A DNA stretch of 64,000 nucleotides, from IMG/VR virus record IMGVR_UViG_3300027793_000064. One strand, given 5' to 3'. Below are positions 19,403 to 24,223 of this stretch, one piece after another. Source of the DNA: an uncultured virus (IMG/VR IMGVR_UViG_3300027793_000064) (taxonomy: Duplodnaviria; Heunggongvirae; Uroviricota; Caudoviricetes). A program made the translations under genes and the position numbers. A model generated the notes under the pieces. That model was not told the DNA's origin. It ran no database searches and saw only the letters and a program-made list of their open reading frames with translations. The stretch's first letter is position 1, and each line of letters opens with the position of its first letter.

Positions 19403-19820
19403 TCAGGTCTGCCATGCACGCCACCAATTCTTTAACTGGAAATTGGAAACCAGGCGGGAGTAACCTCCACATCCGCACCAGTCGTCATATTTAATGTCCA
19501 TACGACGAGGACAATTTTGGGTCACAATTGGCTCCACCACTTAGTTTTGAGAAACTAAGAAAAGTTGTGCTAATTTACTCAATTCGATCATACTAAAGAA
19601 AACGCATAATAACAACATATCCCATAATCTAAATTTAATCACAAAAGGAACAATAAGTAGTCCCCCAATAAACTTCAATAATAGACCACTTTTGAAATCC
19701 CCCCATAACATAATTTGATAACCAATAATGAGAAAAAGATTTCCAAGGTACCTAAGAACACTAGTTTTAGACATAAGGGAAGCACTCCGACCAGGGCAAG
19801 TTTTAAGTCATTCCGAGACT
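19403..19820 (-). ncRNA. Multi-pseudoknot structured RNA (manA-motif-like), interrupted by an ORF
   Basis: Three H-type pseudoknots (19540-19582, 19482-19513, 19424-19453), each followed by UGGYG; separate 5' module at 19775-19820; followed by a terminator; near tRNAs and mannose genes. Family assignment from memory, not searched. Confidence 0.6.
19541..19774 (-). CDS. Small multi-TM membrane protein embedded in the structured RNA
   Basis: 77-aa hydrophobic ORF, LRYLGNLFLIIGY...LWDMLLL. Confidence 0.7.
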   Translation of the reverse strand: MSKTSVLRYLGNLFLIIGYQIMLWGDFKSGLLLKFIGGLLIVPFVIKFRLWDMLLLCVFFSMIELSKLAQLFLVSQN

Positions 19821-22550: not shown

Positions 22551-22745
22551 TCAAGAGTTTTTTTGTATTACTTCAAGATCAGTTCCAATAGCACGAAGCC
22601 ATGTATTTAAATTCTCCATAACAAATTCATCATCTGGATTTTCAAAATTGATACGAATATCACGGATTGTATCGTGGTTTTCATTCCTGGCGGAATAACC
22701 AAGATCATAGTTTGTGTTCACAACTTGTTTTTTGGGCATAATCAA
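22551..22745 (-). CDS. Hypothetical protein
   Basis: ORF track, 64 aa, within the tRNA island. Confidence 0.6.
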   Translation of the reverse strand: MIMPKKQVVNTNYDLGYSARNENHDTIRDIRINFENPDDEFVMENLNTWLRAIGTDLEVIQKNS

Positions 22746-22780
22746 TTAAGAATGTAATACGGAGATATTTCAGTATCTCA

Positions 22781-22860
22781 TGCTCGAAACAGGAGTCGAA
22801 CCTGCAAGCCGAAGCGGTTGATTTTGAGTCAACTGTGTATACCAATTCCACCATTCGAGC
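22781..22860 (-). tRNA. tRNA-Leu(CAA)
   Basis: GCTCGAA/TTCGAGC; GTTGA-CTCAAAA-TCAAC; long variable arm. Confidence 0.92.
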
Positions 22861-22900
22861 TGGCGTCTCAGGTTGGATTCGAACCAACGACCAACTGCTT
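22861..22900 (-). pseudogene. 3' half of split tRNA-Arg(UCU)
   Basis: AAGCAGTTGGTC-GTTGG-TTCGAAT-CCAAC-CTGAGAC-GCCA; the acceptor strand is complementary to 23499-23505. Confidence 0.85.
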
Positions 22901-23314
22901 ATCAGGAATACTAAGATAATCTTCAGCCAAGTTTATACCAATTTTTTGATTATTCTTGGGAGGAACTAATCTTAGGACAAATGTGTTACTACAATCATTT
23001 GGATTTATGTAGTAACACATATCTGTGTCTGGACAGTAGACGCACATTACATCAATTTCATTTTTATCATAATTTTGAGTATGTGTTCCATTTTTATCTG
23101 TCCAGCAAGTCCTGAATGGAACTTCTATTTTACCATCTTTTGATGCTCTATACTTGACTTGAACTCTTAAAAAGTTTCCATCTTTGTAGGCAACAAGATC
23201 AAAGGCAGAATGTTCTGTATGAGGAGTAAGAATTAAGTATCCTTTCTCATATAGATCAAGTTGTGCTTTTAGGACTCCAAGATCTCCTTTGTTTTTAGTA
23301 TGATGTTCCCTCAT
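22868..23314 (-). CDS. PD-(D/E)XK homing endonuclease (I-Ssp6803I/PDDEXK_5-like)
   Basis: HTKNKGDLG, FDLVAY, RVQVKY, YDKNEID..CVYCP. Confidence 0.85.
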   Translation of the reverse strand: MREHHTKNKGDLGVLKAQLDLYEKGYLILTPHTEHSAFDLVAYKDGNFLRVQVKYRASKDGKIEVPFRTCWTDKNGTHTQNYDKNEIDVMCVYCPDTDMCYYINPNDCSNTFVLRLVPPKNNQKIGINLAEDYLSIPDKQLVVGSNPT

Positions 23315-23328
23315 ACAAGTAACGATAT

Positions 23329-23347
23329 CTCTTATTATTTATAAGAG
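23329..23347 (-). promoter_or_regulatory. Late promoter TATAAATA within a hairpin upstream of the endonuclease
   Basis: CTCTTAT-AAATA-ATAAGAG. Confidence 0.7.
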
Positions 23348-23382
23348 TAGCAACTTACCAGTATGTTACTCAGAACAACCAA

Positions 23383-23454
23383 CAGGCTCACCTGGAATCG
23401 AACCAGGGACATTCGCTTAGAAGGCGAAGGTTATATCCGCTTAACTATGAGCCC
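23383..23454 (-). tRNA. tRNA-Arg(UCU), intact, nested inside the split tRNA-Arg
   Basis: GGGCTCA/TGAGCCT; TTCGC-CTTCTAA-GCGAA; CCTGG-TTCGATT-CCAGG. Confidence 0.92.
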
Positions 23455-23468
23455 AAGCGGTTGTTCTA

Positions 23469-23505
23469 AGAAATCAGATACTCTATCCAAGTGAGCTACT
23501 GAGAC
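23469..23505 (-). pseudogene. 5' half of split tRNA-Arg(UCU)
   Basis: GTCTCAG-TA-GCTC-ACTTGGATA-GAGT-A-TCTGA-TT-TCT, ending at the anticodon. Confidence 0.85.
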
Positions 23506-23543
23506 ATAAGACAATCATAAGACATTTATCTTAGATTGTCAAG
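23506..23543 (-). promoter_or_regulatory. tRNA promoter cassette 1
   Basis: CTTGACAAT-N14-TATGATTGTCTTAT. Confidence 0.8.
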
Positions 23544-23617
23544 TGGAAACACTGGGGATTGAACCCAGAACCTCACGCTTATAAGGCGTGTGCTCTAACC
23601 AGTTGAGCTATGTTTCC
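23544..23617 (-). tRNA. tRNA-Ile(UAU)
   Basis: GGAAACA/TGTTTCC; CACGC-CTTATAA-GCGTG. Confidence 0.88.
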
Positions 23618-23618
23618 G

Positions 23619-23656
23619 ATAAGACAATTATAAGGCAGAACCTTGGAATTGTCAAG
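23619..23656 (-). promoter_or_regulatory. tRNA promoter cassette 2
   Basis: CTTGACAAT-N14-TATAATTGTCTTAT. Confidence 0.85.
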
Positions 23657-23740
23657 TGCGAGTAGGGAGACTCGAACTCCCACGGGATTAACTCCCAACG
23701 GATTTTAAGTCCGGTGCGGCTACCATTACGCCATACTCGC
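23657..23740 (-). tRNA. tRNA-Leu(UAA)
   Basis: GCGAGTA/TACTCGC; CGGA-CTTAAAA-TCCG; long variable arm. Confidence 0.92.
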
Positions 23741-23742
23741 GG

Positions 23743-23780
23743 ATAAGACAATTATAGATCATAAGATCGAAATTGTCAAG
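23743..23780 (-). promoter_or_regulatory. tRNA promoter cassette 3
   Basis: CTTGACAAT-N14-TATAATTGTCTTAT. Confidence 0.85.
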
Positions 23781-23821: not shown

Positions 23822-24223
23822 TCACTCTTTGGGGCAGCTGTCAACCCATGGGGCACACAACCTGATTTCTCCTCCAAGTGACCGACACTCATCAGTATAG
23901 CACACAGAGGTGTCTACTGGTTTCTCTGAGAGTCGTGGTGGTGGAATTTTAACATGCCCACCATCTCCTGTCAAGCGTTCATAATCACTGATTGCTTTAT
24001 CCACGGTTCGCTCGACATCTCTTTCCAATATACCAGGATCTTTTTGAAGTTCTGGAATTAATGGAGAATCTGGTTGATATGTTTGGAGATATTCATAAAC
24101 AATATCCCAAATATGTTTTTGTTCTATCTTTAAGCAAGAGGAGAGTGATGCTATTATTAAAGATAGGACTACAATAGTTTTAATATGTGCTTTCTTTTTT
24201 CCTACCTGAAAATTAAATTTCAT
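23822..24223 (-). CDS. Hypothetical membrane-anchored protein
   Basis: N-terminal hydrophobic helix ending LSSC; Cys-rich C-terminus. Confidence 0.7.
   Translation of the reverse strand: MKFNFQVGKKKAHIKTIVVLSLIIASLSSCLKIEQKHIWDIVYEYLQTYQPDSPLIPELQKDPGILERDVERTVDKAISDYERLTGDGGHVKIPPPRLSEKPVDTSVCYTDECRSLGGEIRLCAPWVDSCPKE

Follow-up and report, generated by a model that had tools for sequence, protein, structure and literature searches.

A probable intron-less homing cassette that carries its own tRNA-Arg(UCU), nested in a phage tRNA-Arg(UCU) gene

We analyzed a stretch of 64,000 nucleotides (nt) from an uncultured virus (IMG/VR record IMGVR_UViG_3300027793_000064), referred to below as the window, in which 568 bp of inserted DNA separate nt 36 from nt 37 of a resident tRNA-Arg(UCU) gene on the minus strand. 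This insert contains a second, complete tRNA-Arg(UCU) gene, enclosed by a short helix (the clamp), and a gene for a homing endonuclease. Very probably, it is a mobile homing cassette that works without an intron and that settled at this position of the resident phage gene. An initial annotation, made from the sequence alone, had proposed a splicing-free element that brings along a replacement tRNA-Arg(UCU). This proposal is upheld by the presence of the same junction in at least seven outer alleles, by the existence of intact alleles of the resident gene, and by the nested tRNA being the only tRNA-Arg both in the source record and in the complete 196-kb genome of Synechococcus phage Sf-FR1. 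The source is a 79-kb viral record estimated to be 41% complete, its relatives are Synechococcus phages, and the sequencing runs that hold the stretch are lake-water metagenomes.

Along the minus strand, the 5' half of the outer tRNA-Arg(UCU) (23505..23469, nt 1-36) is 37 nt long and ends in ...TTTCT; it is followed by the insert (23468..22901), the 3' half (22900..22864, nt 37-73) and a CCA (22863..22861). The outer acceptor strands, GTCTCAG and CTGAGAC, form seven of seven pairs. The 5' arm of the clamp, CTTAGAACAACC (23470..23459), takes its first two bases from anticodon positions 35-36 of the outer tRNA. Four bases separate it from the nested tRNA-Arg(UCU) (23454..23383), which runs from G1 to the discriminator G73 with CCA not encoded, and two more bases separate this tRNA from the 3' arm, GGTTGTTCTGAG (23380..23369), which is missing from free-standing relatives. 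A conserved spacer of 54 nt (23368..23315), common to the free-standing cassettes of loci L006-L013 and holding a hairpin CTCTTAT..ATAAGAG (23329-23347, minus strand), leads to the nuclease gene (23314..22868, 148 amino acids). Outside the cassette, tRNA-Leu(CAA) (22860..22781) directly abuts the CCA. The resident tRNA-Arg has a promoter-like site (TTGACA, 17 nt, TATGAT; 23514..23542, minus strand) with 11 of 12 consensus matches, and a minus-strand scan from this site to the end of the nuclease open reading frame (ORF) gave no second promoter. All coordinates of the split gene in the initial annotation hold on the minus strand, as do its 568-bp separation, its 7-bp acceptor pairing, its 12-bp clamp overlapping the old anticodon (12 bp including one G-U pair) and the abutment of the CCA on tRNA-Leu(CAA), which starts at 22860. 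The complete inner tRNA with a UCU anticodon that it had described is recognized by the Rfam tRNA model (62.5 bits versus a gathering score of 29), and ARAGORN concurs.

The initial annotation had named a misassembly, or halves derived from unrelated tRNAs, as what would overturn it. The identical layout is present in two other viral contigs (L002 and L003), and all sampled words of the stretch occur in 14 DNA runs from six studies, which argues against a misassembly. With regard to the halves, at least 120 viral contigs contain an uninterrupted gene that has this acceptor, this D stem and a body of ordinary length, as the initial annotation had called for. Nearly all of these genes are tRNA-Arg(TCT) genes that read ...CTGCCTTCT followed directly by AAGCAGT..., a reading that places the insertion point between nt 36 and 37 and shows that the outer halves are not a chance pairing. 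The fetched loci provided 200 intact tRNA-Arg genes with 82 unique sequences, and intact alleles of the GTCTCAG, GCCCCTG and GCTTCAG acceptor types are common in other phage contigs. At the intact alleles, a directly abutting next tRNA is common and the same kind of promoter is present. The cultured phage S-CAM4 also has an intact gene, of the GACTCAG type, whose CCA abuts tRNA-Leu(TAG); it is the nearest arrangement to the window's empty site. The exact empty site (tRNA-Ile(TAT), intact tRNA-Arg, tRNA-Leu(CAA)) was not found among the matches listed (120 loci) or in cultured phages.

Compared with the nearest intact halves, the window's 5' half has four differences and its 3' half two. The D and T arms, described initially as intact, are so only in part: the 3' half has no rare-state position relative to 32 unique intact 3' halves, whereas the D arm is not fully standard, given that among 36 length-matched unique intact 5' halves C15 occurs in one and T25 in two. 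The mismatched outer anticodon stem was likewise overstated. Three of its five pairs form, U27-U43 is native to intact alleles of the same type, and the sole unusual pair is A31-G39, a position at which 80 of the 82 unique intact alleles have a standard pair. The TGCAAAT T loop of L004 and L005 was considered as a further sign of decay and rejected, being native to the intact GCCCCTG family.

The insert recurs as a unit. In a megablast search against phage genomes, the match to Sf-FR1 (92.4% identity) covered exactly the 568 bp and did not reach into the flanks; in Sf-FR1 the cassette lies between a promoter and tRNA-Val and the outer gene is reduced to 12 nt of its 5' half, CAACTGCCTTCT. The junction, ...TTCT followed by TAGAACAACC..., is identical over at least seven distinct outer 5' halves; a scan with the junction 14-mer yielded mostly chance matches (4 real among 114 loci). 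Besides the window's own GTCTCAG/CTGAGAC, the outer acceptor strands, most of them matched by compensating changes where both are present, are GCCCCTG/CAGGGGT (L004, L005, L541), GCCCCGT/ATCTTCC with non-complementary strands (L256, L557, L558), GCTTCAG/CTGAAGC (L324), GACTCAG/TTGAGTC (L546), a GTCTCAG of different body with CTAAGTC and five of seven pairs (L547, L553), and GACTCAA in L551, whose contig ends before the 3' strand is seen. The layout of half-tRNA, tRNA, endonuclease and half-tRNA that the initial annotation had suggested looking for in phage genomes is thus found in several outer tRNA-Arg backgrounds. Complete inserts are always 568 bp long (L004, L005, L256, L547, L553) and 92-99.5% identical. 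The relatives also form a decay series, in which the nuclease is partly or wholly deleted and the outer halves are mismatched or lost: L546 has an insert of 262 bp that lacks the 5' part of the nuclease gene and keeps the nested tRNA and clamp, and L324 has an insert of 130 bp in which the nuclease is gone and clamp and tRNA are kept, 72 nt being the tRNA.

These copies could in principle descend from a single ancient illegitimate rearrangement that was inherited vertically, with an immobile nuclease and outer halves that drifted apart. Between the window and other copies, the nuclease has a synonymous divergence (dS) of approximately 0.32, comparable in magnitude to the 9-13 of 37 positions at which the window's outer halves differ from those of the other copies, and one clamp and one junction in all copies imply that the cassette arose once. 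Under drift, however, the pairing of the acceptor would not survive three compensated changes (GTCTCAG/CTGAGAC versus GCCCCTG/CAGGGGT), nor would each outer gene match a separate intact family, down to the TGCAAAT T loop. Moreover, the genes flanking the cassette differ between copies (tRNA-Leu, tRNA-Thr, tRNA-Val, tRNA-Asn, tRNA-Gly or an ORF), and the nuclease is under purifying selection. We therefore regard this history as quite improbable. Repeated insertion by homing would also accommodate the mixed state of several outer genes. L004 and L005 share a 99.5% identical insert and have 5' halves that differ at 5 of 37 positions, and their upstream leader and downstream tRNA-Thr are common to contigs with intact genes, such as L064 and L079. 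The chimeric halves of these two loci, of L547 and L553, and of L256 look like co-conversion tracts.

The protein encoded by the insert was correctly assigned at the outset to the PD-(D/E)XK nucleases of the I-Ssp6803I family. It matches PF11645 (PDDEXK_5) with E 4.6e-38 and 130.8 bits (cut-off 26.1) over residues 4-134 and positions 1-136 of the 138-position profile, and it matches PDB entry 2OST with E 7.8e-6, where FDLV is aligned to YDLV and the VQVK is shared. Seven of seven cassette nucleases keep the two stretches unchanged; we take them to be the conserved acidic residue and the (E/Q)xK of the nuclease core. The conserved part of the protein ends at residue 137 (..SIP), and the outer 3' half contributes the final 11 codons and the stop, as the initial annotation had noted for its last residues. 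This overlap is incidental: the tails of relatives enter whatever follows, which is tRNA-Val in Sf-FR1 and a promoter in free-standing copies. The ratio of nonsynonymous to synonymous substitution (dN/dS) stands at 0.12-0.16 when the window is set against other nested copies and at 0.05-0.08 when the comparison is with free-standing ones, the full range over comparisons involving free-standing copies being 0.03-0.12; among the free-standing copies themselves it is 0.03-0.07, and dS of 0.65-1.36 is near saturation there. Judging from these ratios, the nuclease is under purifying selection and is maintained.

Free-standing nucleases that are 80-83% identical to that of the window (L006-L013 and L559) lie directly downstream of an ordinary '...GCCTGTT'-type tRNA-Arg(UCU), with the same spacer, no clamp and no outer halves; in three of three such contigs the nuclease-linked tRNA is the sole tRNA-Arg. 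The nested tRNA likewise exists on its own, in that a gene identical at 72 of 72 positions is free-standing in L262 and L319. Among the matches listed (119 loci with a nested-type tRNA), 94 had no nuclease, 8 were too short to tell, 6 had a free-standing nuclease, 5 had clamp and nuclease, 1 had the clamp without a nuclease, and 5 were other tRNAs or gave no call. Further afield, the pair of tRNA-Arg(UCU) and nuclease recurs in Acinetobacter phage Herod (41% protein identity), and a homologue adjoins tRNA-Gly in Mycobacterium phage Wilder; an alignment-based search for distant nuclease relatives added only close ones. Two loci, L576 and L578 (from position 801), hold relatives of 42-44% identity with a long extra C-terminal region, and that of L578 follows a tRNA-Arg(TCT) without a clear clamp. 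Given the free-standing relatives and the free nested-type tRNAs, the nested cassette is not the ancestral state of the nuclease. It is a derived composite, in which an ordinary phage tRNA-Arg allele is combined with a free-standing nuclease module and a clamp has been newly added.

The same data bear on whether the nuclease is kept because it benefits the phage, for instance by cutting the tRNA-Arg genes of competitors (marker exclusion), with the nested layout as a by-product. The dN/dS of 0.03-0.07 among free-standing copies despite near-saturated synonymous sites is what such a function would leave, the pairing of tRNA-Arg with the nuclease is kept over the distance between cyanophages and an Acinetobacter phage, and for SegB of phage T4 the loss of a rival phage's tRNA-region markers is reported (PMC2330249). 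Nevertheless, the deleted and truncated nucleases of L324 and L546 indicate that the gene is dispensable once the cassette is fixed, and most nested-type tRNA-Arg genes in the above survey have no adjoining nuclease. We consider a benefit to the phage unlikely as the full account, and it overlaps with homing rather than excluding it.

A separate question is whether the insert is an intron. The initial annotation saw no room for a ribozyme core, and indeed the group I intron model of Rfam (Intron_gpI, RF00028) gave no match at E ≤ 1 in five copies, namely the window region, L324, L005, L256 and L001; nor was a group I core found at the tRNA-Arg of the free-standing relatives L006, L008 and L559. 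According to the literature, group I introns typically have a U before the 5' splice site and a G as last intron base. The insert is preceded by U36, yet it ends in ...CCTGAT, or in ...CCTGA if slid by one, with no terminal G. A group I intron was rejected on the missing core, the missing terminal G and the length of the nuclease-less copy (130 nt). In the Herod locus, a partial Intron_gpI match (L560:3267-3429; 30.9 bits, below the gathering score of 50, and cut by the locus end) lies downstream of an HNH endonuclease gene and not at the tRNA-Arg.

It could still be asked whether the 568 nt are removed by an unrecognized ribozyme or by proteins, so that an outer tRNA-Arg is made after all. 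Relevant here are the RNA data, which comprise three metatranscriptome runs from three studies, sampled together with one raw-read DNA run over positions 22700-23700; contigs from such runs carry no information on abundance, strand or ends, and DNA may be present in RNA libraries. All three RNA runs have mismatch-free contigs that cover the nuclease gene together with the outer 3' half. These contigs are unbroken across 22900/22901, and none of the contigs listed shows a joint of the outer exons, with the reservation that contigs can drop rare forms. In favor of such an intron are the U at position -1, the 7/7 pairing of the window's halves, the absence of rare states in the 3' half, and a joining event at the nested tRNA, real at the RNA level or at any rate seen in RNA libraries (see below). 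Against it stand the missing group I match in five copies, a last base of T or A in place of omega G, the 130-nt insert of L324, of which the tRNA takes up 72, the RNA contigs, the non-complementary or lost halves of relatives, and the occurrence of cassette parts outside any tRNA. Taken together, a new kind of intron has very little probability. The suggestion that the outer shell persists as a scaffold for ribonuclease (RNase) P and RNase Z is not supported, as the halves are chimeric or non-complementary in L256, L547 and L553 and almost gone in Sf-FR1.

The homing cycle that we propose would run as follows. During co-infection, the nuclease would cut uninterrupted resident-type tRNA-Arg genes in the DNA of the anticodon arm, as the prototype does at tRNA-fMet. 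The break would be repaired from the cassette-bearing genome, with the tRNA halves and neighboring DNA providing homology, and repair would copy the cassette in and co-convert nearby exon sequence. The resident gene would thereby be destroyed and never spliced, and AGA decoding would pass to the cassette's own tRNA, an ordinary cyanophage allele. The nested tRNA would be transcribed from the resident promoter, released by RNase P and RNase Z, and completed by CCA addition. Later, the nuclease gene would decay, and the nested tRNA would have to stay.

The clamp forms in the minimum-free-energy fold, and none of 200 shuffles folds as well. The flank-to-flank duplex amounts to -18.6 kcal/mol in the window and -18.5 to -18.7 kcal/mol in the cassettes; in a comparison with 915 distinct tRNA contexts, whose median is -4.9 kcal/mol, this is the first percentile. 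Among the cyanophage copies, two variable positions give one G-U pair and one mismatch and are not informative. In Herod, the nuclease-linked tRNA-Arg lies inside a 15-bp interrupted helix of different inner sequence, whose outer part starts ...CCTTCTTAG and pairs with the AGGAGG ribosome-binding stretch of the nuclease. A Herod-like contig (L575; 88% nuclease identity) has the helices CAAAAGC/GCTTTG and AATCT/AGATT. By these predicted pairings, one structure is formed by three different enclosing-helix sequences. In the Herod locus (L560:1375-1500), the clamp pairs CCUUCUUAG with UUAGGAGG and sequesters the Shine-Dalgarno-like AGGAGG. This suggests that translation of the nuclease is coupled to processing of the tRNA there. 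In the minimum-free-energy fold of the window region 23340-23505 (minus strand), the outer 5' D-arm region additionally pairs with the spacer in three blocks (AGUAU/AUACU, ACUUG/UAAGU and AGUAGC/GCUACU). This may be due to chance, since free-standing copies, which lack an outer half, contain the spacer as well.

The RNA libraries contain a joint across the nested tRNA. A 673-nt contig of run X17 covers 22740-23382 and continues with 23455-23484, skipping exactly 23383..23454, the span from G1 to G73 of the nested tRNA, and the two sides of the joint have no letters in common. A 567-nt contig of run X15 stops at 23382 and carries 16 loose letters that equal 23455-23470, giving the same joint, while a contig of run X16 enters the nested tRNA for 46 nt (to 23429) without a joint. 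The clamp-less tRNA-Leu(CAA) is not skipped in the X17 contig. The ends of the joint, at G1 and after G73, coincide with the canonical cleavage sites of RNase P and RNase Z. The raw-read DNA run, X21, had one read on the sampled positions, over tRNA-Ile, and none of the clamp-bearing DNA records (at least eight viral contigs, 5 real matches of 15 from metagenomes, Sf-FR1 and the window's own record) shows a variant without the nested tRNA.

What this joint reflects is less certain. Tentatively, the nested tRNA might behave as a protein-spliced intron in the infected cell: after excision by RNase P and RNase Z, the 3'-OH of the leader and the 5'-phosphate of the trailer would be held together by the clamp helix and joined by a putative ligase, closing a 12-bp hairpin in front of the nuclease mRNA. 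The coincidence of the joint with both processing sites, its recurrence in two runs from two lake studies without shared letters, and the unskipped tRNA-Leu(CAA) in the same contig speak against a reverse-transcription artefact across the folded, clamp-held tRNA. In PMC10628436, such artefacts are described as rare and with inconsistent ends. The same source nonetheless documents the skipping of hairpin-structured regions, the clamp and the tRNA fold set positions -1 and 74 side by side, and the ligase families PF09414, PF01139 and PF01068 had no match in the 41%-complete record or the complete Sf-FR1 genome (a search with PF09511 was uninformative, as its controls went unmatched). We consider skipping by the reverse transcriptase to be close to an even prospect and rate it somewhat above re-ligation; a rare DNA deletion variant is a third possible explanation.

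Several observations count against homing as laid out above, or lie outside it. The target of the nuclease is deduced from the insertion site and the family prototype, and its assignment to the anticodon arm is thus a prediction. The central 11 bp, GCCTTCTAAGC, are common to the nested tRNA and the presumed target, so that immunity of the nested tRNA would depend on the outer stem positions. The 17-nt anticodon arm of the nuclease-linked tRNA in L008 is identical to that of the allele invaded in L004, and anticodon arms in general are common to tRNAs with and without a free-standing nuclease, which means that the free-standing relatives may cut elsewhere. For the same reason, immunity via a distinct anticodon arm was considered and rejected. 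The very strong purifying selection could also reflect a benefit to the phage rather than selfishness alone. In addition, the window's own outer halves are only mildly deviant, decay being shown mainly in relatives, and neither the origin and role of the clamp nor the RNA joint is accounted for by the homing cycle, which does not predict the latter.

Some features of the surroundings were also recorded. Three successive tRNA genes of the window each have their own near-consensus TTGACA-17-TATAAT/TATGAT promoter (23514-23542, 23627-23655 and 23751-23779, minus strand) with a shared ...TGTCTTAT tail, a pattern seen in many related arrays. In other loci (L032:1159-1195, L060:1159-1195, L006:1325-1361 and L008:944-980), tRNA-Arg(UCU) is preceded at a distance of 5-7 nt by an abiF RNA motif (RF03085; 46-51 bits, gathering score 37). 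This motif heads many cyanophage tRNA arrays with and without the nuclease but is not in the window, and the abiF leader text also precedes intact tRNA-Arg in approximately 10 further loci. A wcaG RNA motif is present in the window at 19410-19514 (minus strand; 68.4 bits versus a gathering score of 42) and in Sf-FR1 (L001:6374-6473). Directly before the tRNA array of the window is an ORF of 133 amino acids (23822-24223, minus strand) ending in ...CAPWVDSCPKE; similar ORF endings precede the arrays of L010, L011, L013 and several intact-allele loci, which marks a conserved array boundary. After the free-standing nuclease of L011, ARAGORN called a permuted transfer-messenger RNA (1924-2224) over tRNA-Thr, which is probably a false call.

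Homing endonucleases usually spare their host by means of self-splicing introns, inteins or intergenic sites. The cassette would provide a ribozyme-free way to occupy a tRNA gene, in that it brings a spare copy of the gene it breaks. Its relatives offer natural stages of a life cycle (free-standing pair, nested cassette, truncated nuclease, lost nuclease, lost outer halves), and the fixed insertion point is a candidate cleavage site. Annotation is affected as well, since standard tools report the inner tRNA alone and overlook the dead shell. If the RNA joint is real, then together with a clamp conserved in structure and not in sequence, it would point to an undescribed step of RNA cutting and rejoining in bacteria or phages.

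Among known systems, the closest is I-Ssp6803I, the endonuclease of a group I intron in the tRNA-fMet gene of Synechocystis, which belongs to the same protein family as the cassette nuclease (PF11645/2OST). The home of this prototype, reportedly described by Bonocora and Shub in 2001, is in the anticodon region of the tRNA. According to the literature, the enzyme binds a 23-bp pseudo-palindromic site as a tetramer, a mode of recognition that fits the palindromic DNA of an anticodon arm. The cassette differs from it in that the gene lies outside a group I intron, the interrupted tRNA is apparently not spliced back, a second complete tRNA gene is added, the gene interrupted is a tRNA-Arg(UCU) gene of a phage, and cleavage here is predicted. 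With tRNA group I introns in general, some of which carry a homing nuclease gene, the cassette shares the anticodon-loop position directly after a U; it lacks their ribozyme core and omega G, and no exon ligation was seen in the RNA contigs. A 2014 review places all phage introns known by then in protein-coding genes despite the many phage tRNA genes (PMC3984707); the cassette helps to explain how phage tRNA genes can be invaded all the same.

The free-standing nuclease genes of L006-L013 and Herod resemble SegB of T4 in their location within a phage tRNA array. As with SegB, the nuclease gene is outside any intron or intein, in a region otherwise common to nuclease-less relatives. SegB recognizes a tRNA gene sequence and drags neighboring tRNA genes along by gene conversion (PMC2330249). 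It is a GIY-YIG enzyme with a site that matches a T stem-loop, and its gene lies between intact genes, whereas the nuclease and tRNA of the cassette are inside the target gene at a fixed nucleotide, leaving two dead halves.

Elements that restore what they displace are also familiar, such as integrase elements whose attP carries a tRNA 3' end and mitochondrial endonuclease ORFs that come with a substitute gene end. As in these cases, insertion would be tolerated because the destroyed part is supplied. Unlike their in-register segment, the cassette supplies a whole separate tRNA gene and leaves the old one as two halves. That a phage attB can overlap a tRNA gene is documented in the literature. 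A literature search, mostly without full texts, found no published description of a nuclease-plus-tRNA cassette nested in a tRNA gene. Set beside these systems, the cassette is best regarded as a new variant of homing-endonuclease mobility and not as a new category.

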